DNA of 64,000 nt, from positions 186,001 to 250,000 of the forward strand of contig JBEWZL010000124.1 of assembly GCA_045837725.1 (NCBI GenBank), in the 5' to 3' direction. Below, piece by piece: positions 14,262-46,969 of this stretch (within the stretch, counting starts at the first letter, position 1; each line of letters opens with the position of its first letter). The stretch is from Vermamoeba vermiformis. Its lineage: Eukaryota. The notes beneath the pieces are model-generated. The model saw nothing but the letters and a program-made list of their open reading frames with translations, had not been told where the DNA came from and made no database searches. The translations under genes and the position numbers were made by a program.

Positions 14262-15906
14262 TTATTTATTAGGTTTGGCATTTTTGCTCTTAAAAGCAAA
14301 TTCAGCACATAAAGGTAAGTGATCCGACGGGAAATTTTCATTCGGCAATGTACCAATCTCTTTCATCCCTTCCTCGTCCGGCAACTGCAAAATCTTCGTC
14401 ACATCCAACGTCTTTGGCGTATAAAACATGTAATCTAGTGTACCACTGAACTCCTCTATATTAAAATATCGTTAGAAATGCGTTAGATCCGGCAAGTTAA
14501 CGGACGGATGTGGCTAACGCCAACGATACGTACTGGTATGATTAGTCGTCCAAGGCTCGCCTATTGTATTTCCATAAGCACTCTTTAAGTTGAGTTTATG
14601 TTGTATTCCTTGTTCCCAAGCAACTCGCTGCGTGCCGTTGTCATCGAACGTCAGATCCGGACTTTGGTGCTCGAGTTCACCGTTGACTATGAAATTATAT
14701 AGGCCCGATGTTGGTTTACTATTGAAATCTCCGCAAAGAACTATCGGCGTCTCGTCAATATTGAGCTTATTATGGTCGAAAAATTGTTGCAAAGACTTGA
14801 CCAACATTTTCGCTTGAATCGTCTTAATTGCTGTATGATCAGGTCTCCAATATAAATGTGTATTGGCAATGACTACTTGTCTTTTTGTATTGTTTTCTTC
14901 GAACAGACAAAACAACGCGACGTGATCTCGTTTGGCAAAGTTGAACAAAAATTTGCTGTTGATCCGTTGCATGAATGAAGGGTCTTTCATATACTCTTGT
15001 ATTCTTCTTCCATATTCTACTTCTTCTTTAACTTTCAGCGTAAACCTAATCAAAAGAATTGGTAACAAATCTAATTTGACACGTGTCATATTGCTTTGAA
15101 TAACGTAAACGAATGTTTGCGGTTATTTAGTCCCTTATAATGTAATTCATACCTCGATTTCCTGTAAAATATTGTGGCGCCATCGACGCTTGGTCCATCT
15201 CTTCCGTCTCTAATTCGGCCCTTGGGCAAGTACACGCCTTCAAAATTTCTGAAGCGGAAATTGATCGTAAAGAAATTGTTAAAATCTGTTTTTTCAAGTT
15301 CCTAATCATAAAAACATTATTATAATATTTCCTTATAAGGAAATATTCGTACTTGTAATGCTACAAAGTCAGAATCGAGTTCTTGAAGCTCCTCTGTCAA
15401 TCATTTGTCGCCTTCGAGGCCAATGTACAATATCATAAGGCACGCCCATACTGGCCTCGTGCTTCGGTACTAATATATTATAGCTTGTAACAAGAAATCT
15501 GTCTGTGAAATGAATGTAAGTCCAGTTGATAGAAGTTTTCGGCTCGATCGCTTGATATTCGTATTGTTAAAAGAAACATTGCTTACCGTTAGCTTTGTAT
15601 TTATTTTCGAATTCTCTAAACGGAAATTTATGCTTGGGGCCCTTCTCGTTCGCTGTAAATGGAGATCCGTCAATAAATTATTTCAATAAATTGCAAAAAT
15701 TGGTAGTGCATTAAAAACAGATGAAATATGATACATTGAATCATATCAGCGTGCTTTCGCGCTTTAAATATTTTCTGTAGCGCAAATAACCATGACAGAT
15801 CAAGTGAATTCATAGAAAACCTACCAAGTCCTCTTACTGATGGCTTAGCGATAATATTGGCGGAATTAAATGCTCGCCGCAGCATTCCAATCAATTTATT
15901 GGCCAT
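14262..15906 (-). CDS. EEP-family (CCR4/Angel/PDE12-like) phosphodiesterase, possibly mitochondrial; apparent +1 frameshift near 15400
   Basis: Motifs SYNIL, ALQE, IANTHLYW, LCGDFNS, LDYMFY, PSDHLPL. The basic, acid-free N-terminus MANKLIGMLRRAF resembles a transit peptide. Confidence 0.85.
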
Positions 15907-22644: not shown

Positions 22645-23227
22645 ATGTCGTCCACACCTGATTATTCAAATTTAATAGGCAAAAAAGGTGAGGCTAAGGT
22701 TGTTGTCGAAAAGCATCTCCTTGCAAGCCAGATGAAGAGCGGCGATGTTGAGGTAAGCCTTGCACGCTCAGTCTCATCGTTCTCGTGTTTATTAACGGAA
22801 AGGTGTATGGCAGTCCTGCAATGATAGGCCTCATGGAAGAGGCAGCGGTCAATGCAATTAAAGAGTTGCTTCCATCCGGTCAGGTAAATGAAATCTGACA
22901 CACTCCGCTTCCGACAATTTTTCTAATATTATTAAATAGACATCTGTTGGTACGGGATTTAATGTACAGCATTTGAGCGCGACTCCACTTGGTTTGAACG
23001 TACGAATAATTTTTCTAATTTTTGATCTCGAAATTGAAATATTATTTGGCGCTAGGTGCGAGCTGAAGCAGTCGTGAATTGAAGTCAATGGTCGTAAAGT
23101 TAAGCTTACAGTTACTGCTTTCGATGACAAAGAAAAAATTGGTGAAGGAACACACGAGCGAGTGATCGTGGACAAAGCTCGCTTCATTCAGAAAGCTAAT
23201 GGCAAATTAGAAACAAAATCTAATTAA
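22645..23227 (+). CDS. Hot-dog fold thioesterase (FlK/fluoroacetyl-CoA thioesterase-like); apparent +1 frameshift near 23077
   Basis: Spliced: SGDVEVYGSPAMIGLMEEAA...TSVGTGFNVQHLSATPLG...GEGTHERVIV. Confidence 0.85.
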
Positions 23228-23284
23228 CCAGGTACATAAATATACCCCCGATTATTCCCTACCCGATTTATTTCTTTTTGTTTT

Positions 23285-23410
23285 GGAGGCAGACCGCATG
23301 CGCTCAATGCGATCCGCGACAGTAAAAAATTATTCCTTGTGCCCGTAAGGCACTAAGTACTCGTGCCTTCATGATCACACCGAGTACTCCTTATCAAGGA
23401 AAGGTAAGTA
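23285..23410 (-). ncRNA. U1-like spliceosomal snRNA (short variant)
   Basis: Minus strand reads TACTTACCT (5' splice-site complement). It has helix TTCCTTG/CAAGGAA, stem-loop I with loop GATCATGAAG (U1-70K site), Sm-like site ATAATTTTTTA and 3' hairpin GCGGATCGCAT/ATGCGGTCTGC. Confidence 0.8.
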
Positions 23411-23849
23411 GAAGTTGTTTTCGATGAAACATCGTTCCTTTCGCACGTTTTTGTGAGCTCCATCCGCGTAAGCATACAGAGCTCCGTGGCAGCGGACAAT
23501 GTTCGAGGCTTCGTTAAAAATTATACGATAATCTCGACGTTTTAATATCGTATGAACAGAACGCAGTTTATTTTGGTTCTTTTCACGTCTGGATTTTACT
23601 AGATCGGCTAAGAAATTTCCAAACCTTAATTTAATTACGTTACAATTTAGTGAGTTCAAAATTTATACGGTGACGTGCAGACTTCGCTATTTTGAGTTGC
23701 CAATCGCGAAAACTAACAGAAACTGCAAATGAAAGAACGAAACTTGCTGGTGGCTACAAATACCCGGATCTCAGATTACTTACTATGCTAACTATACACT
23801 CAATAACACTACCAAAGCTAAGACTAGATACTACAAGCTAATTCAAGCA

Positions 23850-24143
23850 ATGGCTGAAGATAAAGAGTCAACTCAAGATCAAAACCCAGTCGCGTTAGAT
23901 GTGATCCACTGCGCTGTCCAAGATTGCCCCAAAGTAGCTTCTTATCAATGCAATAAGTGTACGACACATTATTGCCCGGGCCACGCACCTGTTATGCGCA
24001 ACACACGGTGTCCTGTGTGTGACCAACAGAAAGGCAGATGTTGCGTAAGGAAGCACGAGCGACGCTGTCTTGGTGCCGTCTCATTCATTTTGATTGGAGT
24101 GATCGTCGTGGGGGTACCACTGTTTCTATTTTCATATTACTAA
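23850..24143 (+). CDS. Small Cys/His-rich (zinc-finger-like) tail-anchored membrane protein
   Basis: CAVQDC...CNKC...YCPGH...CPVC followed by a C-terminal hydrophobic helix. Confidence 0.6.
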   Translation: MAEDKESTQDQNPVALDVIHCAVQDCPKVASYQCNKCTTHYCPGHAPVMRNTRCPVCDQQKGRCCVRKHERRCLGAVSFILIGVIVVGVPLFLFSYY

Positions 24144-24390: not shown

Positions 24391-26267
24391 ATGTCCTTAG
24401 CGCAACTAAAGCAAGTAGAATCGCTAGAAAGCTGAGGATATTTCGTTCGAGCTCGACTCGTGATATTCTCAAATAATTACAGACGCTCCAAATGTTAAAG
24501 AAGATATTTCTTATGGCATTAGAAAACCAGTCTGTACAAATTGTAAAAAACGGAAGATCAAGTGCGATTTTGAACTGCCCTGTTTTCAATGCAAGAGCCG
24601 CAACGTGACCTGTGAATATCCTAAACCCAACGTAAAATCCCCGAATGAAGGACAAATAGTAAATTCATTGATGAAGAAGGTCGATCAGCTGAAAAAAGAA
24701 CTCGAAGATCAAAAACAGATGGTGAATTATTGGCGGAGTTTGTCAGAATCAACGAATACCCGACAAAATAGCCCAACTATAATTAGGAATATCAGAAGAA
24801 CCAATACTTTCTCGAAAGAAACGCAGCAGTTTATCTCTAACGTCACAGCAGCAGTCACATCCGTCTCCAACGCCTTCACAAACGTAATCAAAGCAGTGAT
24901 GCCGAGCTCTACCATCGAGTATAACGTAGTATACGCATCGATGATATGGAATCGATTATTGGACATGACACCAGAAGATTGCGTCGAAAACATCAAATCC
25001 AGCTGTTCACCAGAAACTGCAACTCAATTATTATTACATTGTACGATCTTCGCATTAGGTAAGCATCATAATGATAGATTTATGTTAGTAGTAGCGAAAC
25101 ATAACGATTGCGCTTGCTTACCAATTCTCCTTTTATGGAAATTTGTGCACGTGCTTTAACACGATTTTTGATGTCGTTTAATTAATTAATTATTTTAATT
25201 ATAATAGGATGTCGTTTATATGACCGTAGCATCGCCGATCTCGCAGAGCATTTTCATCTGATCGCGATGAAGTTGATCAACTCAGGCTGGATCGATGCAA
25301 CACGAGACGATACAGCAGAGCAGTGGATATTATCATTGATGTATACTATGTTCTATAATAGGAACAGATTTTTACCCATTGGACCGCTTTGGGAACGAGC
25401 ATCAGAATTGCTTGTAACGCTGCCGAACTTGGAAAACGATACTTATATCGAGTAAGTGCTTATAATACTATAATATCTTAAATATAATATTAATGAACCT
25501 TTTCTTAGAATTGCATTAACTTTGGTGGTCTTTAATCCTTTAAAATGCAATGCGGAGATGAAATGGTTGCAACGACTGGATCAAGCACCACCATTTGAGC
25601 CGGTAAGGATTATCATACAAATATAAATACGATAGGATGTATCTAACGTTTCAGATTGAAATTCAATTCCTTCGTAGTGCGATCCGGTTATGTCTCGCAC
25701 TTGCGAGAGTAGATCCAGCCAATGGCAAGTCTTCGTAAGTATTATAGAGCCACTAATATATATATATATATATATATATATACTGCCCTTTTGAATCCAA
25801 TGATCGATTCGTTGAATGCTAAATAGCTTGTACGATGGATCCGTTCGTACTCACATTTGTTCCTTAGAGATCTGTGGGACTACATGGTGAACCTCGAAGA
25901 TATTTTGAATAGAATGCTAGATATACCGTACTATAAGTTCTATGGCGTACTAGTATACACGCTGAAGTCAATCAGTGCATTCGTTGGTTCACCAGATCCA
26001 CCTGCTGAGATCGCAAAGTGCACGCAGATTATATCGAGATTTTATTCAGAAATAACTGATAGTTCACAACGATATTTCTTAAGTAGGACAATAGAACACT
26101 ATAGATTTGTATTATCGAGCAAATCAATAACATTGCCTGATGGTCGGAAAGTGACTCCGATGGCGGATGTGTTGTACAATATTATCATTCAGATCACTGG
26201 TGCTGAACCTGATAGCGAACTCGAACAGAGCTTGACGAATATGGGACTTAAAGAAGACGATAAATAG
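24391..26267 (+). CDS. Zn(II)2Cys6 binuclear-cluster transcription factor (start uncertain)
   Basis: CTNCKKRKIKCDFELPCFQCKSRNVTC = C-x2-C-x6-C-x5-C-x2-C-x6-C near 24533-24613, followed by a coiled coil and helical exons. Confidence 0.8.
25756..25782. repeat. (TA)n microsatellite in an intron
   Basis: About 13 perfect TA units. Confidence 0.95.
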
Positions 26268-28889: not shown

Positions 28890-31800
28890 TTATTTCGAAA
28901 CATCGTCTTCATTTAATTCAGCAGTAGGTTTTTGTGTGGTAAAATAAGACGATAAAGCCAAGTGATCAGAAGGCCATTGATAATGAGGCACTCCACCGAG
29001 TTGTTTGAGCAGATCCGGGCCAGGAAGTTCAACGACATGTGTTCGCGCCAGATCTTCCGTATAAAATATGTAATCCACCGTGCCTTTAAACACCTTGAAG
29101 TAACTCGTGAAATAAGGCTCTGACAATTCTTCAGTATTGTATTCTTCGTAAGCAGATCTGAACTTGAACGGATGTCGGATCACCATCTCATCACTACTAC
29201 TATTTTCTTCGCTACTACTACTATTAATACTACTTTGACTCTCGACACTATCACTCTCATCGCTGTCCAACAAATGAATTCTTTTTCTTGGCAGTCCTTC
29301 AATTTCTTGACTCGGTTTTCGTTTCAATCCAACGTTGACTTCTGATTGGTCAATTTTTACACCAGCATTTTGCTTGAGAATATTTCGTGCTGTTGCTCGT
29401 TCATCTAGCTCATCAGGCGTATAGAGACTAAGATCCAGACTTCCATTTCGAACAAACTGGTACAAGCCACTCGTCGGGGTGCTGTTGAAATCTAGCGAGA
29501 GATCGTTAGTGAGACTTGCCTTATTTGGAAATAAGTTGACGGACTTACCTCCGCACAAGATCGTGTTACGTAGACTAGGATTGAATTTTGCAAGTTGTAA
29601 CAAGACTTGCTTGATCTGCTTCATCTTAACATCGATGTACTTCATATAACAGACATTAATATGTATCATATATTAGGTTTTTCTATAAGAACTTACCTTC
29701 GGATTCCAATAAATGTGCGTTGTGGCAATGCAGATCTCTTCAGCCACGCTACTCGCGCGTGCCTTGGACTTCTCCTCACGGATCTGCCCTTTATAATTCT
29801 TGTTGCCATTGCTTGATGCCGCCGAGGACTGCTTCTTGATGCCATATAGAGTCCCGTAGAAGTTATTTTGATTGGTGTTTGTGTTGTTATTTACATGACT
29901 ATTCACATCCGTTGAACTTGACTCGCTGTCACTCAACGAAGATTCCTCGCTAGAAACGTTTGTATTTGTATTCGCAGCATCGATTGGCTGTAACATTGCA
30001 AATAACGCAATGCAGTCCTTCTTGTTCCGATCTGTTGCTAGTCCGCGACTGTAGCCTCGGAAGAATTCGTCCAATTTTTGCATGTCCGGATCGTTGTAAC
30101 TAAATTTGTTCAACTCTACTGACTCGGTCCTGACGACCTTAAACCTAAAACATAATTAGTATTTGTACTAAAAAGCATAGACAAGCTTGAACCAAGCGCA
30201 TCTGAGCTCGATCTACGTACTTTTGGTCTTGATAAAAAATTGCGCATCCATCAGTTCGACCTCGTGTTCGTTGCTTCCATAAGCCTTTGTAACCAACTAA
30301 AATACAAAAATTGTAAGCATAATAAGCCAAAAAAAGAGTGCTCTAGGCTGGGCTCGAACCAGCGACCCTGGCGTTATAAGCACCATGCTCTAACCAACTG
30401 AGCTACAAGGGCGAGTGATGCCAGCGCCTTAAACTAAGGCGTCTAGCGCCCAAAAAGGACGAACGCGGCTAAAGGCGATATCCGCCCTTCACCCAACACT
30501 TTGCCCAAAAAGACTAGTCTAGGACTTTTGTTCGGAAAATTGGTTGAGAAAAGCGAAGCTGTACAACTGGGCCAGATCTTCACGACGGAGAGACGTAAAG
30601 CGTGTTTGAACGCAATCTTCTCCTCCTTCGACGCCAAGTAAGGCAGCTTTCCTCCTACTGACCTTTTTTTCATAAGGATCGAAACAATCAGACAGAATGC
30701 TTTGGAGGCCGTGGCAGCGATGCTCAACTTGAAGACAGCCACTGGAGCCGATCTATTTTATATCACAAATATTTTTTTTTTTTCCCTTACATCAGTACTA
30801 TTCAAACTACTTTAACCATGAATTTTCGTCAAACTTTTTCGGCTAAAATGGGAAGCCCCACGTGACAACACTTACTTGACTTGAACCGTACATAGAAAAG
30901 TATCTTATTTTTTCACGTTATCAGATGAAAGCTTTACTATTCACTTATATTTTATCGTTGCTGCTGCTATTCGTGCAGGCTTCATTCATAATTGAAAGCA
31001 TCGGTTGCAACGCATCCACACCGTTTGTACAAGCCGATGTACGAGTATATAATGGCAATTGCTTTCCAGAAAAATTTGGTTGGAAATTAATTGAGTGCGG
31101 TGAAGATGAAGCAATCGAATCGATGTGCGATAATTCCCAATGCACTCAAGGCTGCCTACAAAAACAAGTATACCAGCTCAATAAATGCAAGGATAATGTC
31201 TACACGATGTGCACAAAAAGCTTTCCAAACATCACCAAATTAACTGGAAATCCTGGTCCCTACGTTGTCTCAAAAAGCTTTAACGAAGAGTACCATGCGG
31301 GTTGTGAAGCAAAGTACGCGGAAACGACGTACTACGACTTGACCGGCGTATGTCGCAAGTATCTACAAAGCAAGTCGTACTTTTTATCGTGCGATCCGAA
31401 CGACGCGCTAGAGTGGTTGTTCGAAAAGAACACTGTTTGTCAGGGAGCAGTTACTGAATTACTCACAACCCGATTTAGCTGCACTCCTACCTCGTTTGTA
31501 ACGTGCGAATATTATCCTTAATAAATACACGAACTTAAAAAAAAAAAGTTGGCTGAGATCGAATCCGCATCTGATGGTCGCGGCGACAAAACGATATTCT
31601 ACCAACTGAACCACAGGGGCACCCAAAAAAATTATTGCTGCTTAATCTGCTGAACACGAGCAAAAAAGTAATGAGGGCGACGTGATTCGAACACGCAACC
31701 ATCGGACCTGGAATCCGCCGCTCTACCGTTGGAGCTACGCCCCCTCAGTTGAACGCCCAGTAAGCGGCTCTAAGGAAGTCGTCAAAAAGAACAAAGCCCT

Positions 31801-32762
31801 GGGCTGACACGAAGCAGCTCGCGAGCCCGAACATTTTGACACGCCCAAAAAAAAATGTAGTTGAGTGTAAAATTACACCACGAACTTGTAGCAAGCGCAC
31901 GATATCCCAACGATTGAGAAGCAAAAAAGAAAAAAAAGAGGAATCCGACCTGCCGGAATCGAACCAGCGACCTAAGGATTGATGCTTCACTACAGTCCTC
32001 CGCTCTACCGACTGAGCTAAGGTCGGTTTGATGACCGCGGCCTTCGCTGGTCCGTCGGGGCGACAGGACGGAGGAGCACAACTCAGGAACACCCCGGCAG
32101 TCCCGGATAGTCCCAGTCCGGATCCCCAGGATTGCAAGAGCTTGGCGTGCGCACTAATTCTCTCCTGAACAGTTGCACAACTAGCCCCTCAATATGGATA
32201 CGGCTTGACAAGTAACCGTCAAGGTAAACTCACGACCTCAGTCGGTAGAGCATAGGCAACGTTGTGTATGGATAGCATTTGAAGTAACTTACGTGTTTCC
32301 AAATTGTTCTTGAACCAAGCGTAATCCTCGAGCTCTTGCATGCATATAATGTCGGGTGTCTTGTCTTGAATAGCGTTGAGAATGAGTTTCCTTCGATACG
32401 GCCATTTCAAAGCAGGGTACGGGCAGTATGGATAGAACGAATAATTGATGTACGAATCAGCAAGGACATTCCAAGTCATTAAGCTGAAGTTGGTGCCTTG
32501 ACACGATCGGGTCAGTACGTTCATTAAAAATTTAATTCGTTTACGTACCAACAGTCTGCATCGTTCCTTCATCGTGCATCATTTTATTATTTTTGCATTC
32601 CATAATTTTTAAAGGAAAGCAAATTTCTGACGTTTGTTGGTGTCGTTGCGCTGAGATCGAGATCGACCTTGTGGATCCATTATTTGACGATGATCGAACG
32701 TGTAAATATGTACAAGTTGATGATTTTCGACAATAGCCACGAGCGAAGTACTTGCAAATCAT
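28890..32762 (-). CDS. CCCH zinc finger plus EEP (Angel/CCR4-like) phosphodiesterase; 2-kb intron 30297-32292
   Basis: N-terminal CKYFARGYCRKSSTCTYLH; motifs TWNVLA, ICMQE, DGCAIFY, ATTHIYW, CGDFNS, VDYIFY, PSDHLAL. Splicing 32293 to 30296 joins in frame as LETLGYKG. Confidence 0.85.
30339..30412 (-). tRNA. tRNA-Ile (TAT), intronless, inside host-gene intron
   Basis: Cloverleaf with anticodon arm TGGTG-CTTATAA-CGCCA, A and B boxes and an oligo-T terminator. Acceptor stem has C3:A70 and T6:T67 mismatches. Confidence 0.9.
30925..31521 (+). CDS. Secreted Cys-rich protein nested antisense in the EEP gene intron
   Basis: Intronless 198-aa ORF with signal peptide and two Cys-rich halves; AATAAA at the stop. 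Confidence 0.75.
   Translation: MKALLFTYILSLLLLFVQASFIIESIGCNASTPFVQADVRVYNGNCFPEKFGWKLIECGEDEAIESMCDNSQCTQGCLQKQVYQLNKCKDNVYTMCTKSFPNITKLTGNPGPYVVSKSFNEEYHAGCEAKYAETTYYDLTGVCRKYLQSKSYFLSCDPNDALEWLFEKNTVCQGAVTELLTTRFSCTPTSFVTCEYYP
31548..31620 (-). pseudogene. Degenerate tRNA-like element (possible GTC/Asp anticodon)
   Basis: GCCCCTG-TGGTTCAGTTGGTAGAAT (intact A box/D arm), TTCGA-containing B-box-like loop and T11 terminator. The 3' acceptor strand is missing. Confidence 0.55.
31672..31744 (-). tRNA. tRNA-Trp (CCA) with G27:A43 mismatch
   Basis: Acceptor GGGGGCG/CGCCCTC, anticodon arm GCGGA-TTCCAGG-TCCGA, T arm GCGTG-TTCGAAT-CACGT, T6 terminator. Confidence 0.9.
31944..32026 (-). tRNA. tRNA-Tyr (GTA) with 10-nt canonical intron (31980-31989)
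   Basis: C1-G72 acceptor CCGACCT/AGGTCGG; GAGGA-CTGTAG-[TGAAGCATCA]-ATCCTT; oligo-T terminator. Confidence 0.95.
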
Positions 32763-37371: not shown

Positions 37372-40300
37372 ATGTCGAAAAAACTAAAGAAGGGTAAGGC
37401 ATCGCAGATCCAAGGCAGTGAATCCGATCGAGCGAATGATTATTGACACTACACGAATATTTATGCATACATAAATTCGCCAATAAATATTCTATAATAT
37501 TAACAACCATAATTACGCATAAAACATTAATTTTTGACTCATTGTAACGAATATATTTAGGCCAAGACACCGAAGAAGACTTAGCCTTGAGCTTTTGGTT
37601 CGCTGAAGAGCACGAAAAACAAGAAGAGGAATTATTAGATAAATTAATAATTGAAACGAATAATGATCAAGTCAGCGATTTTGAGAATCCAGCTCAACCC
37701 GAGTGGCTTTTAGACGAGTTCGTTATTTATCAATCACACGACCACGCTGTAAGTTTTAATCGATTAATATTACATTTAGTATTATATTAATATGAAACGC
37801 ACGCTAGATCTTTAACTTGGAGCAATTGTCATTCGCGGATGCGATTATCGCCGCATCAGGCACAGTAAAGCTTCTGCCTCGTGAATTTAGCGACGACGAT
37901 GACGAAGAAGAGATCGAACGATACAGAGAACGCGAGAGAAATTTTGAACCCTTCCGCGTTCAATTAGGCCGTATTGCTCAATGGAGTGTTTCTTACGATA
38001 TTGCTTCATCTGCGAAGACCAACATTTGGATCCGCACTGAATTTTGCTGGTACAGATTAGGCCAACCTCTTGAACAATACGCCGAGGTACGTACACGTAT
38101 TCTACTCCTATATGAGTTGGTCTTAACAATACAATGTAGCAATACTTCCCCTTACAAATCAAATCGCAATTGTGCTCGAAGGTCATCGCACTTCTCGGTA
38201 ACAATCCTGGAGCTACTTTTGAGGACTTTGTCAAAGAGGTATGTCAGAACCATCTCCGGATCTGGTAGCTAAGATTAACTAACCGCCCATCGTATTAGAT
38301 TACCGCTGTTGAAGAAGCAGACGATGATGACGACGATGTTTGGGAGAGCAATGCTTTGACCTTCACGGAAGATGACTTGGTCGAACACGCCGAGTTCATT
38401 TTGCAACAAGTACGTAACGGATCCAGCTGCAATTGAATCATTATTACGAGTTACTAACGCGATGTTAACGTGCCACAGATTGACAGTCTCGCTGCCGAGC
38501 ATGATAACGCCGAGTTATGGTTGTCTCCTTTCTTCCAAGAGTTGGTAAGTTCTTGATCCGAATCCGGTGCTTGCAAGCGTTGGAGAAGCAAATGGATGGT
38601 TTAGTGTTCATTCCTGGTGGAAGTAGTGACCCGAACACGATGTTGCAGTCGCTCTCGGGCACGACCACACTAACAAGAATGCACCGCTTCCCGTCCGATC
38701 AGCGAAGTTAAGCTTGTTCAGGCCTTCTTAGTACTGGGGTAGGAGACTACCTGGGAATCGGAGGTGTTGTGCTCTTCTCTTTTTTGCTTTTTGCCTCTTA
38801 TCGCACAAGCCTGATAGAAAGCCTTGCGAATAAGCTCCGGCGAAAGTGGATCTCGCATCTAATATTTTTGATCTAGAACGTTCGTCTCGAAGCGAAGAAG
38901 AAGCTGCCTAACAAGAAGCTTGCTGGCAAGTCTCAACTCCGAGCCAATCAGACCAAGGGTAAGCCATTCAGCCGCTTTATTTATTTTGGCCTATTTTGTC
39001 TCGCAAAATCAACGCCAATTTTTTGCTCGCGAGCTGCTCCTTCATTCTAATTATCGCAATCTACGATAACACCATGGCGTATCTAACTAATACATTGGTT
39101 AGCCACAACCACCCCGCTCGTTTACTCGATCTGGAAGGGCTTCTGGGCTAAAACACTTGCCTTCAATAGAAAAGCTATCAAGAACAAGGCTGTACCCAAG
39201 AAAGCTGCTAAACCGAAGAAAGGTCTTGCTGAGAAGTCTAAACTCTTCGAGTATGTATTTTTAAATATTTTATTTGATTTTATTTTTAATTTTGGATGTG
39301 ATCTGCAGAGATCGTAAGCTCAATATCCAATGGATCGGCGCACCTGTCAAGACCGAAACTACTGACAAGGGCAAGAGAACGTATTACAAGTCCGTTTACG
39401 TTAACAACACCAAGTAAGTCAAAACTCAATCCGCTGTTGGATTGTCAGTTCCCAGACTAACGCGTTATAGATACGAGGTTGGTGAGGCCGTCTATGTTCA
39501 ATCACCTACAGAAGGTGAAGACGAATTCATTGCCATCATTACTTCGTTGTGGCGTCAAGGAGAGGACAACTTGTTCCACGCTCTTTGGTTCTGCAAATCC
39601 AAGGACACTGTTCTCGGTGATTCCGGTTCCGAGCATGAGGTAAGAATAATAGACACGTTATATACCTAAGTAGATCCGATACTTATGTTTCGCAGCTTTT
39701 CTTGACCGATCTCTGCGACAACAACTATTTGGAAGCCTTGATCGGCAAGCCCGACCGTCTCGTCTACGTTAAACCTGATGAACCTACTCCTGACTTTGGA
39801 GAGAGCCCTGATTCATATTTCTTCCGCTTGTTCTATCACCAAGGCAAGGTCTGCTTTACAAATCCGCCGTACCAAATGGATTGCACTACTGGCGACTGCC
39901 CTGTTTGCAAGGTAAGAATAAGGATAAATATAAACTCAACCCTGTTGTCCCGCCTACATTGTTCCATATACGATGATCGGCTCATATCAGCAGGGAATAT
40001 TTCAATACAAAGTTTGCTACGCGAACTCGATCTAATTTTTTCTTGAACTAGCATAAAGAGACTTCCAAGCCTACTGCTGTTCCTGTTGGCGAGCCTATCA
40101 AGGAAGACGGAAAGTACAAGCTATACGATGCCTTCCAATACAATGGCGTTACTTACCGAGTGAACGACACCATCTACTTGGATCCGTCTGAAGTCGATAC
40201 TGTTACTATTGCCGAAGATGACGCTCCTGTTGTCCGCTCTGACAAGAAGAAAAAGAAGAAGAAGGAAGAAAGCGATAAGAGTCCTTCTAAGACCATCGAC

Positions 40301-43300
40301 TCGTTCTTCAAACCTGTTGCTAAATCCAGCAACAAAGATGACGACCAAAGCGCTACTAGCGAAGAGTCTAGCTCTGAATCCTCTGATGATGAAGACGTTG
40401 AGGAAGAAGACGATGATATGGACGAAGATGAAGACGAGGACAAGCCCAAGAAAAAGAGCGGCAAATCCACCAAAGGTAGTCGTTACTGGTGCCAAAGCTA
40501 AGCCTAAACCTGCTGCTACTGAGTCGCCTGCCAAAGAAGCTGTTAAGGAAGAGGTCGTTAAGACTGAAGGTGCTCCCGCTGCCGCATCTGCTACAAACGG
40601 AACTGCATCCGAACCGATCAAGGTCGAAGGTGCTGTTGAAGAGGCTGGCACTAAGAAGAAGCAGCAACGCATTTATGTTCGCCCCGATGAAGACGAAGGC
40701 TGGCGTATTCGATACCCCAAAGCTTTGGCTGCAGACAAGGCTTTCAGAAAACGCATCTACAACTTGAATCCGTACTACGTGGCTCGTATTCTCAAGATTG
40801 CCGGACGCCGTAATAGCAACTCGATTAAGATCCACGTTCAGTTGTTCTATAGATTGAAGCAAGTCAAGGGCAAGAAAGCTTTGGGTTCTGATCGCGAGAT
40901 CTTCTACACCGAGTAAGTAGCTCTCCTTTACGGCGCTTAAATTGCTCAAATTATTATCTGCGCTTAATTAACCATATCTATTAGGCGCGAAGAGGTTTTG
41001 AAGGCCAGCGTCGTCAAGGGCAAGTGCGTCGTCCGCCATTACAAATCGATCGTGAAAGGCCAAGAAGACAAAGAAGAGGCCCTGAATAATCATAGAAGCA
41101 AGGACCATCACTACTACTTCCGCGAAGGCTTCGTCATTAAGACTAAAGAGTTTTTCGATGCTCCTGTGCCTCAAGCGGATGGCTCAGAAGATCTTATGGA
41201 ACAGATCAAGCTTCAAGCCAAACAAACCGTGACTCCTCTCAGAACCATGGACTTGTTCTCTGGATGCGGGGGTCTATCTACAGGTAATTACATCATTCCT
41301 TTAACGCACATCCACAACAATTTACGATTAATATGATGCTTAATCAACCCATTGGGACACCTTAAGAGTAGTAGTTGGCCTAATCAACCGGCTGCTCATG
41401 ATAAAAAAGGGAACTGAACATTAATCAACCCTCTATCTAACTTAAGCAATTTATTCTCGGAAACAATTTTTAACCACATCCGCTTCGTTTAGGTCTCGAA
41501 CAGTCCGGCGTTTCAAAGACTTATTGGGCCGTAGAAAAGGATACTGAAGCCTCTGAATCGTGCCACCGTAACCACGAAGGCTGCAAGGTCTACAACAACG
41601 ACATTAACGAGCTGCTCAAGCGCATTATCAGCGGAGATCCGACTTTGCCCAAAAAAGGTGAAGTCGACATGATCGTCGGAGGTCCTCCGTGCCAAGGCTT
41701 TAGCGGTCTGAATCGTTTCCAAGAACGCACTAAGGGCGAAGAAACCATCAATGCTTTGGTCGTGACGTACCTCTCGTTCATCGATCACTTCAAGCCTCGC
41801 TTTGCGGTCATGGAGAACGTCAAGGGCTTGCTGTCCACAGCCAAGGGCAGTGTCTGCGCATTGATCTTGAGCACGTTGATTGCTATCGGATATCAAGTCC
41901 GATTAGGCATTCTCAATGCCGGTCAGTTCGGCTTGCCGCAAAGTCGAGTCAGACTTATCGTGATGGCCTCTAAGGTCGGCGATGTCTTGCCCGAGTTCCC
42001 CGTGCCCACCCACTCCTTCATCATTCAAGGCGCACGCTTCCGTGAAATTCCCGTGGCCTTGGGCAAAAGCGGCGCTCAAAGCGCACCGGGCGTTTTGACC
42101 ACGACGCGCATGGCTTTGTCCGACTTGCCGCCAATCGAGTATGGCGCTAAATTGTCTCAGGGCCTGTCTTATGCCACCGAACCTCCTTCGGACTTTGCCC
42201 GTGAATTACGAGGCAAAGAAACAGAGGTAACCAATCACATCACGAGAGACTTGGACGCGTTGAACTTTACGCGCATCAGTTCGATTCCTCGCGAGAAGCC
42301 TGGTGTCGATTGGCGTTCACTGCCGGACCACTTGATTCCTTGGTGCTTGCCCAACACTGCCGACCGACACAACGATTGGCGTGGCCTCTATGGTCGTTTG
42401 GACTGGGACGGTACGTTTACCTCGCCATATATTATCTTATAAATGATAACTAATAACTTCTATTAGCCTATTGGAAGACGGTGCTGTGCAATCCAAACTA
42501 CTTCCGTCACGCGGTTATTCATCCGAATCAAGACAGGTAAGCGCTCAAATTTTGTCGTTGATATGGTGGAGTTACTGAGGTTTGGGTCTACAATGATTAT
42601 TGAACCCACTATTGGTCCGTGTTAATGAATTTAAATGATTCAGAAGTGATAATGAACATAGATCCAACTCAACAAAAAAAACAATTTTTTTCTTTCAAAT
42701 TTAACGCTAATCTTAATTTCTTTATAATAGAGTCGTATCTGTGCGTGAGTGCGCTCGAGCTCAAGGTTTCCCCGATGACTTCCGTTTCTTGGGCAAGATC
42801 TTCGCTCAGTACAAACAAGTCGGTAACGCCGTGCCGCCACCCTTGGCCAGAGCTATCGGCAAAGAAGTCAAGAAAGCCATGATCCAAGCTGAAGAACAGA
42901 AGCCTTTCCCTGTCGTTATCAAGACTACCACTGAGACCCCTGCTCCAATGCACGTGGATCAAGATCACGTGACTAACGGCAAAGAAGAGAGCTCTGAGAA
43001 GAAGACCAAGACTAAGGAGAAGAAGAGCAAGGGCAAGAAAGAAAATATCTTTGGTGCCTCGAACGGCGATGACTTGTCCAACAACTCCGACGAGAACACC
43101 TCTGACAAGGAGAATCACGCGAGCAATAAGAGCAAGAAGGCTAGCTCGAGCCAAGACGAGAAGAAAGGCACGAAGCGAAAGCGCGAGTCAGGTGAAGAGG
43201 CCAGCGACGATGACGTGCAGTTGACACGTGTCACTAAGAAAGCGAAAGTTGCTGCCAGCGGTGACAAGAAAGAGAAAAAGAAGCACAAGAAGAAGAAAGC

Positions 43301-43343
43301 CAACAAAGAGAGTATTTTTGCGACTGGCAACAACGATATGTAA
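37372..43343 (+). CDS. DNMT1: DNMT1/MET1-type C5 cytosine DNA methyltransferase (RFTS-like, BAH1, BAH2, MTase); apparent +1 frameshift near 40472
   Basis: Motifs [86 protein letters not shown] and RFTS-like exons upstream. Confidence 0.93.
38657..38775 (+). rRNA. 5S rRNA gene inside DNMT1 intron 38545-38876
   Basis: 119 nt; terminal helix GGGCACGAC/GTTGTGCTC; CCCGTCCGATC, box A (AGTTAAGC), TTAGTACTG, CCTGGGAA; T-run terminator. Confidence 0.95.
41326..41426 (+). ncRNA. Box C/D snoRNA, U58/SNORD58-like, in DNMT1 intron 41284-41492
   Basis: 7-bp terminal stem GATTAAT/ATTAATC; box C ATGATGC (41333); box D CTGA (41414); C' ATGATA. Guide TTGGGACACCT (41352-41362) is complementary to conserved LSU AGGUGUCCUAA. 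Confidence 0.75.
42576..42671 (+). ncRNA. Box C/D snoRNA, U18/SNORD18-like, in DNMT1 intron 42537-42730
   Basis: External stem TGAGGTTTGGGTCTA/TAGATCCAACTCA; box C ATGATTA (42593). Guide TTGGTCCGTGTT (42612-42623) is complementary to conserved LSU AACACGGACCAA. D' and D both read ATGA. Confidence 0.8.

Positions 43344-45778: not shown

Positions 45779-46969
<1,191 letters not shown>

Follow-up and report, generated by a model that had tools for sequence, protein, structure and literature searches.

A shortened gene for a U1-type small nuclear RNA (snRNA) is located on the minus strand of the window, the whole stretch of 64,000 nucleotides of DNA that was analysed. It is very probably a real U1 snRNA gene from which the arm bound by U1A is missing. 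Its RNA has no stem-loop II and is predicted to form a three-way junction. As judged from sequence and predicted structure, the RNA would belong to the functional class of U1, having the 5' end, the loop of stem-loop I, and an Sm site with a terminal hairpin.

Results

Sequence elements and fold of the U1-type gene

The initial annotation had described a minus-strand unit of ~125 nt that contained ACUUACCU, a closing helix, a GAUCAUGAAG loop, one further hairpin, an Sm-like site and a 3' hairpin. All of these elements were present, in a unit of ~123 nt (Table 1). The spacers between them are short. On the minus strand, 6 nt follow the UUCCUU strand of helix H, one unpaired A separates stem-loop I from the small hairpin, a single U precedes AAUUUUUUA, and 4 nt lie between AAUUUUUUA and the 3' hairpin. 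The small hairpin is flush against the 3' strand of helix H, with zero spacer. The reported lack of an AUUGCAC loop was likewise confirmed, as ATTGCAC is absent from 23287-23411 and the small hairpin carries no U1A-type loop. Elsewhere in the window ATTGCAC occurs in 14 copies, about the number expected by chance.

Table 1. Features of the U1-type gene and its upstream neighbourhood. Bounds of the gene are approximate, since its mature ends are predicted only.
Feature	Positions	Strand	Description and basis
U1-type snRNA gene	23287-23409	minus	~123 nt; RF00003 alignment, fold and motif pattern
5' splice-site recognition sequence ACUUACCU	23409-23402	minus	single-stranded; sequence and ensemble fold
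Helix H (closing helix, 6 bp), 5' strand UUCCUU	23401-23396	minus	MFE fold, pair probabilities
Stem-loop I	23389-23355	minus	stem ~12 bp; aligned to the stem-loop I columns of RF00003
U1-70K-type loop GAUCAUGAAG of stem-loop I	23376-23367	minus	loop motif AUCA(N)GAAG present
Single short hairpin GUGCCU-UAC-GGGCAC	23353-23339	minus	6 bp, 3-nt loop; replaces stem-loops II and III
Helix H, 3' strand AAGGAA	23338-23333	minus	MFE fold, pair probabilities
Sm-type site AAUUUUUUA	23331-23323	minus	single-stranded, between helix H and 3' hairpin
3' terminal hairpin, stem-loop IV equivalent	23317-23289	minus	11 bp; Rfam alignment and MFE fold
Upstream region, presumed promoter-bearing	23412-23500	minus	contig X9 spans the region with 1 listed change
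Probable first (5' UTR) exon of divergent neighbour gene	23398-23467	plus	X22 reads, GTAAGC donor at 23468

The minimum free energy (MFE) fold obtained with ViennaRNA was a three-way junction that reproduced exactly the layout of the motifs, at -44.0 kcal/mol. The corresponding energy of 200 dinucleotide-preserving shuffles was -31.8 +/- 3.6 kcal/mol (z = -3.43), and only 1 of the 200 folded as well. In the ensemble, the probability of being unpaired was 0.90 (mean) for the 5' end, 0.92 for the loop of stem-loop I and 0.95 for the Sm site. Pair probabilities reached 1.0 in the core of stem-loop I, 0.8-1.0 in the small hairpin and ~1.0 in the 3' hairpin. Helix H formed with probabilities of 0.57-0.77, and a rival local pairing in its place, CCUU-GAU-AAGG, was rejected as less favoured than the 6-bp helix.

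Rfam match and specificity of the motif pattern

The U1 family model RF00003 aligned end to end (model positions 1-166) at 23287-23411, with a score of 23.3 bits (E = 6.5e-4, 501 bases searched) that falls short of the curated gathering cut-off of 69.5. The blocks that matched were all functional ones (5' end, helix H, stem-loops I and IV, and Sm site). For stem-loops II and III the model has blocks of 43 and 27 nt, which shrink here to 7 and 10 nt, and the score is low because these two stem-loops are deleted in the alignment. The four-way junction of canonical U1 was not found, and one 15-nt hairpin takes the place of stem-loops II and III.

The whole-window Rfam scan at the gathering threshold listed 5S rRNA and four tRNAs only, and the U1 match was also missing from the whole-window scan at E<=1. 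A local scan with E up to 10 returned three matches, RF00003 and two chance ones (mir-2001 and sar). Two other identities were considered and rejected at this E value: U11 of the minor spliceosome, which gave no match and does not agree with the U1-type 5' end, and a yeast-type U1, which likewise gave no match in the local scan. With a score this far below the Rfam cut-off, the U1-type gene would escape standard annotation.

A combined pattern was built from the 5' motif, a gap, the loop motif, a gap and the Sm motif, with the observed spacings. The window contains a single match, and none of 100 shuffles contains one. Outside the window, the pattern turned up at 3 loci in metagenome contigs, 8 in prokaryote genomes (596 Gb) and a single viral one, the metagenome scan having used the pattern with one additional leading base. 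None of these 12 loci was U1-like by Rfam at E<=1 on its metagenome, viral or prokaryote contig, and alignment of the three metagenome loci showed no body in common with the unit in the window. The 12 loci were rejected as relatives, being chance matches, and were kept as a background rate only; the three collections thus yielded no diverged relative from which covariation could be read. Since none of them is U1-like, the pattern alone is very rare and the added structure is specific. Among the pattern matches, a U1 fold accompanies the copy in the window only.

Variation of the unit in contigs from other studies

Part of a 301-base query was contained in 20 of the 24 public runs listed, and one DNA run held 0.62 of its words. 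Four runs were aligned to the window; environmental metagenome runs with small shares of the query were left out. Contig X3, from an independent study, is 229 nt long, covers 23218-23446 and differs by 6 substitutions and 2 one-base indels. Contig X9, from another study, is 184 nt long, covers 23317-23500 and differs by 7 substitutions in a gap-free alignment. Between stem-loop I and the Sm site, neither X3 nor X9 has any additional sequence. Because both show the same short layout, loss of stem-loop II through an assembly deletion, which the initial annotation had named as a way in which its proposal could fail, is excluded, and the short architecture is real. Both contigs include flanks and may therefore derive from DNA, so that they are no evidence of a mature RNA.

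Seven variant sites were located inside the unit in X3 and X9, and 0 of the 7 fell in the 5' motif, the loop of stem-loop I or the 3' hairpin. By our own arithmetic, the chance that randomly placed variants would miss those 47 of 123 nt is ~0.035. X3, which spans the 3' hairpin, has no listed change in it. This distribution lends weak support to constraint. Three of the changes fall in helix H and stem-loop I. An A>G change (RNA sense) at 23337, present in X3 and X9, converts a U-A pair of helix H to U.G, so that pairing is kept. A G>A change at 23380, also present in both, gives stem-loop I a clean 10-nt loop when folded, and a G>U change at 23389 in X9 affects the wobble pair that ends the stem of stem-loop I. 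Three changes in X3 (23340, 23344 and a deletion at 23347) lie in the small hairpin, where they are uncompensated and bring the stem down to 3 bp; X3 also has one additional U within the U-run of the Sm site. When folded, the X3 and X9 versions both kept the three-way junction. The small hairpin seems to be under little constraint on its sequence.

The gene body of X3 has 4 substitutions and 2 indels in ~123 nt, compared to 1 listed change in ~104 nt of flank. A body more changed than its flanks would count against constraint. The depth of X3 is only 2.5, and some of its differences may therefore be errors.

RNA-seq reads and a probable overlapping neighbour gene

Two raw-read RNA-seq runs that carry the same species label as the DNA run richest in the query yielded 13 and 6 aligned reads, of ~12.97 and ~12.95 million records, respectively. 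All of these reads lay on the flanks, and depth was zero at 23255-23397 in both runs. The reads are 90-95% like the window and therefore come from a diverged strain. The library record is silent on poly(A) or size selection; had the library been selected in either way, a 123-nt unadenylated RNA would have been lost and zero depth would be uninformative. Both runs are ordinary cDNA libraries, a type probably ill suited to an RNA of this size and kind.

In run X22, four or five reads covered 23398-23467 and then continued into sequence unlike the window. A plus-strand GTAAGC donor starts at 23468, precisely where the depth drops. The simplest reading of these few reads from another strain is that they represent the first untranslated exon of a divergent plus-strand gene. 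This neighbour would have its ATG near 23851 and an open reading frame (ORF) for a small Cys-rich protein within 23733-24140; a search of the protein atlas gave no usable match for the downstream neighbour ORF. The probable exon overlaps the first ~12 nt of the U1-type gene in antisense. If the exon reading holds, the neighbour mRNA would start inside those ~12 nt and the region upstream of U1 would double as a 5' UTR exon; an active snRNA promoter at this place would be as compatible with such an arrangement as its absence. Read on the plus strand, positions 23402-23409, opposite the U1 5' end, form a perfect AG/GTAAGT donor-like site.

Upstream of the U1-type gene, no snRNA promoter element was recognised, and no 11-mer of the 149-nt upstream stretch was repeated at a meaningful position elsewhere in the window. 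A scan for bacterial-type promoters and terminators was set aside as irrelevant to the locus.

Host context and splice donors

The window comes from the nuclear genome of an intron-rich eukaryote and contains a 5S rRNA gene, four tRNA genes (one with an intron), an intronless actin gene, and genes for LRR proteins, a BRCT protein and a multi-exon DNMT1-like protein. The DNMT1-like gene, at 37563-43340 on the plus strand, encodes RFD, BAH and C-5 methylase domains. For the catalytic ORF there is a single match at 95%, in Logan assemblies only, and the next matches are at ~40% (insects, plants and algae). The BRCT ORF has 3 homologues in 5.8 billion clusters, and metagenome data include a homologue of the BRCT protein at 79% identity. 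With so few relatives of these two ORFs, the lineage is poorly sampled. The solved structure nearest to the actin ORF is 4efh, followed by 1nlv and 3chw (actins of Acanthamoeba and Dictyostelium); actin is too conserved to place the lineage.

In the DNMT1-like gene, nine exon junctions that had been mapped with P0121 were inspected. The donor was clear at seven of the nine (GTAAGT twice, GTACGT twice, and GTAAGA, GTAATT and GTAAGC once each) and unclear at the other two. ACUUACCU is complementary to the GTAAGT and GTACGT donors of the introns in the window. Since ordinary donors pair with ACUUAC, the organism needs conventional U1 activity. The interpretation first put forward for this locus is supported in part. 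Its structural reading, a U1-type RNA without the U1A-binding stem-loop II, is supported, but the specialised role offered as one option lacks support, as the 5' end is fully canonical and fits the ordinary donors of these introns.

The 5S rRNA gene (104.7 bits; 38657-38775, plus strand) is located inside an intron of the DNMT1-like gene (38545-38876) and on the same strand. The upstream exon of this intron ends at 38544 before GTAAGT, and the next exon begins at 38877 after TCTAG. A T-run follows the nested 5S gene, indicating a polymerase III gene within the intron of a polymerase II gene. Three tRNA genes are clustered on the minus strand (30339-30412, 31672-31744 and 31944-32026), the last with a 13-nt intron. 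At 46643-46726 on the plus strand, within the coding sequence for actin, Rfam gave a match to mir-3533 below threshold (69.8 bits, cut-off 104), which is almost certainly a false positive of a family model derived from actin. An ORF at 24464-25156 (plus strand) encodes a fungal-type Zn(2)-Cys(6) binuclear cluster domain (E 3.5e-10) and sits among markers that are otherwise not fungal-looking. Two minus-strand ORFs, at 14517-15122 and 28893-29672, have weak matches to the endonuclease/exonuclease/phosphatase family and are possibly remnants of non-LTR retrotransposons.

Discussion

Proposed function and alternative explanations

A free 5' end, a U1-70K loop and an Sm site with a 3' hairpin constitute the minimal working set of the U1 snRNP. 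Starting from the observed motifs, fold, reproducible layout and canonical donors, we infer how the RNA would be transcribed, bind proteins and serve as main U1. The free ACUUACCU 5' end would pair with donor sites, and the loop of stem-loop I would bind U1-70K, with U1C recruited by way of U1-70K and the Sm core. Assembly of the Sm ring would fall to the Sm site and the flanking 3' hairpin. Stem-loop II, the docking arm for U1A, would be gone from this particle. In the U1 cloverleaf, stem-loop III sits directly against the 3' strand of the closing helix. The small hairpin occupies the position of stem-loop III and is able to stack on helix H, and is read for this reason as a probable remnant of stem-loop III that would keep the geometry of the junction. 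Since the parts essential for finding introns are kept and the U1A arm is gone, the particle would act as an ordinary U1 snRNP in 5' splice-site recognition, minus RNA-anchored U1A. Transcription would presumably be by polymerase II, because the run of six U in the Sm site would stop polymerase III.

On balance we lean towards a functional, reduced RNA with a three-way junction that serves as the principal U1 of the organism. A less probable explanation, to which we still give appreciable weight, is that the gene encodes a variant U1 paralogue, an expressed or weakly expressed minor copy minus stem-loop II, and that one or more canonical four-stem U1 genes elsewhere carry out bulk splicing. 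Canonical copies may exist elsewhere in the genome, and the lack of body reads in the two RNA-seq runs of the diverged strain and a divergence between strains that is at least as high in the body as in the flanks would both fit a minor copy. Against this, the canonical 5' end and the other functional motifs are intact, and nothing marks specialisation. X3 runs unbroken from flank through unit to flank, and its depth is not raised over the unit (2.5, versus 7.6-10.1 on a neighbouring contig), so that there is no sign of a multi-copy family with the same sequence.

That the locus is a dead copy appears improbable; in this reading, a U1 pseudogene or retro-copy would have lost stem-loops II and III by internal deletion and be out of use. 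The same absence of body reads could be taken in its favour, as could the uncompensated variation of the small hairpin and the apparent mRNA start that overlaps the U1 5' end. An A-rich tract lies directly beyond the 3' hairpin, and AAAACAA is common to this 3' flank and the upstream flank, but a match of 7 nt between A-rich flanks is weak. Moreover, a retro-copy mirrors the architecture of its parent, and retroposition therefore leaves the missing arm unexplained. A random deletion would rarely yield a closing helix of 6 perfect pairs with a 6-bp hairpin flush against it, and this clean arrangement is probably unlike the leftover of a random internal deletion. That the variant sites spare the 5' motif, the loop of stem-loop I and the 3' hairpin also speaks against a dead copy. 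Chance resemblance with no RNA gene at all could draw on the RF00003 score below the family cut-off; we regard it as having next to no chance of being correct, given the absence of the pattern from the shuffles, the z-score of the fold, and the finding of only 8 pattern matches, none with a U1 fold, in all of the prokaryote genomes.

Significance of a U1 without the U1A arm

The contact between U1A and stem-loop II is among the best-studied RNA-protein interactions. More tentatively than its role as principal U1, the RNA may be the sole major U1 of a free-living, intron-rich lineage in which the contact between U1A and stem-loop II was lost independently of kinetoplastids and nucleomorphs. If so, thousands of ordinary introns would be kept without this contact, and the U1A-type protein would be lost, held by protein contacts only, or part of the U2 snRNP only. 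In an intron-rich, free-living host this would amount to a natural experiment, showing that bulk recognition of 5' splice sites can do without RNA-anchored U1A, and the RNA would provide a naturally minimised U1 scaffold with the U1-70K, Sm and 3' hairpin elements. Because standard annotation does not see the gene, U1 would be wrongly reported as absent from genomes of this lineage. A parallel is seen in Entamoeba, for which an atypical U1 with four stem-loops is described in a 2022 preprint (bioRxiv 10.1101/2022.06.08.495308), whereas a 2026 review still lists U1 as absent (PMC13292270). A 2008 screen needed unfiltered Infernal searches for U1 on several protist and early fungal genomes (PMC2396436).

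Comparison with known U1 RNAs

Canonical U1 is about 165 nt long and has a four-way junction. The present RNA and canonical U1 (RF00003) have in common ACUUACCU, the closing helix, a stem-loop I with a GAUCA(N)GAAG loop, the Sm site and stem-loop IV, which follow one another in the same order at similar distances. They differ in that ~70 nt of stem-loops II and III in canonical U1 correspond to one 15-nt hairpin here, and the junction is three-way. In a word-matching literature search that missed subscription journals, no description of a U1 with a three-way junction like that of the present RNA was found, and phrase searches for a U1 without stem-loop II turned up the trypanosome case only. 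Within the literature found, natural U1 RNAs without the U1A site are those of kinetoplastids, whose hosts have almost no cis-introns, and of one nucleomorph.

The nucleomorph case is Bigelowiella natans, whose U1 is given in PMC6461891 as 102 nt long, with the cloverleaf kept and no apparent U1A site. Like the present RNA it is shortened, has no apparent U1A site and retains stem-loop IV. Unlike the present RNA, it keeps a cloverleaf with three stem-loops and belongs to a highly reduced endosymbiont genome, whereas here an arm is missing and the genome is unreduced. The U1 of Giardia lamblia (PMC3510501) and that of the Guillardia theta nucleomorph (PMC6461891) are also naturally simplified, but in the opposite direction. 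The Giardia RNA is described there as a cloverleaf with a U1A-type site and without stem-loop IV and a U1-70K site, and the Guillardia RNA as lacking stem-loop IV. The two keep the cloverleaf and a U1A-type site and are without stem-loop IV and a recognisable U1-70K loop; in the present RNA, stem-loop IV and the U1-70K loop are kept and the U1A arm is absent.

The absence of the U1A arm is shared with kinetoplastid U1. The Trypanosoma brucei RNA is reported to be 75 nt long and without stem-loop II (PMC4041458), and kinetoplastid U1 is outlined in PMC11613528 as a two-hairpin RNA that carries a 5' motif, an Sm site and a loop motif for U1-70K. The latter source also describes a cloverleaf in the U1 of diplonemids, which are related to kinetoplastids. 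As in the present RNA, stem-loop II and the U1A site are missing from kinetoplastid U1, and the 5' motif, U1-70K loop and Sm site are kept (PMC4041458, PMC11613528). A two-hairpin U1 of the kinetoplastid type, with the layout given in PMC11613528, was rejected as a description of the present RNA, which has three hairpins and a closing helix. Kinetoplastid U1 has no closing helix or junction and its 5' motif has diverged; the present RNA, by comparison, has retained a junction and stem-loop IV, has three hairpins in all and a canonical 5' end, and comes from an intron-rich genome. Set against these descriptions, the present RNA is an intermediate form, in which the U1A arm is absent as in kinetoplastids and the junction and stem-loop IV are kept.
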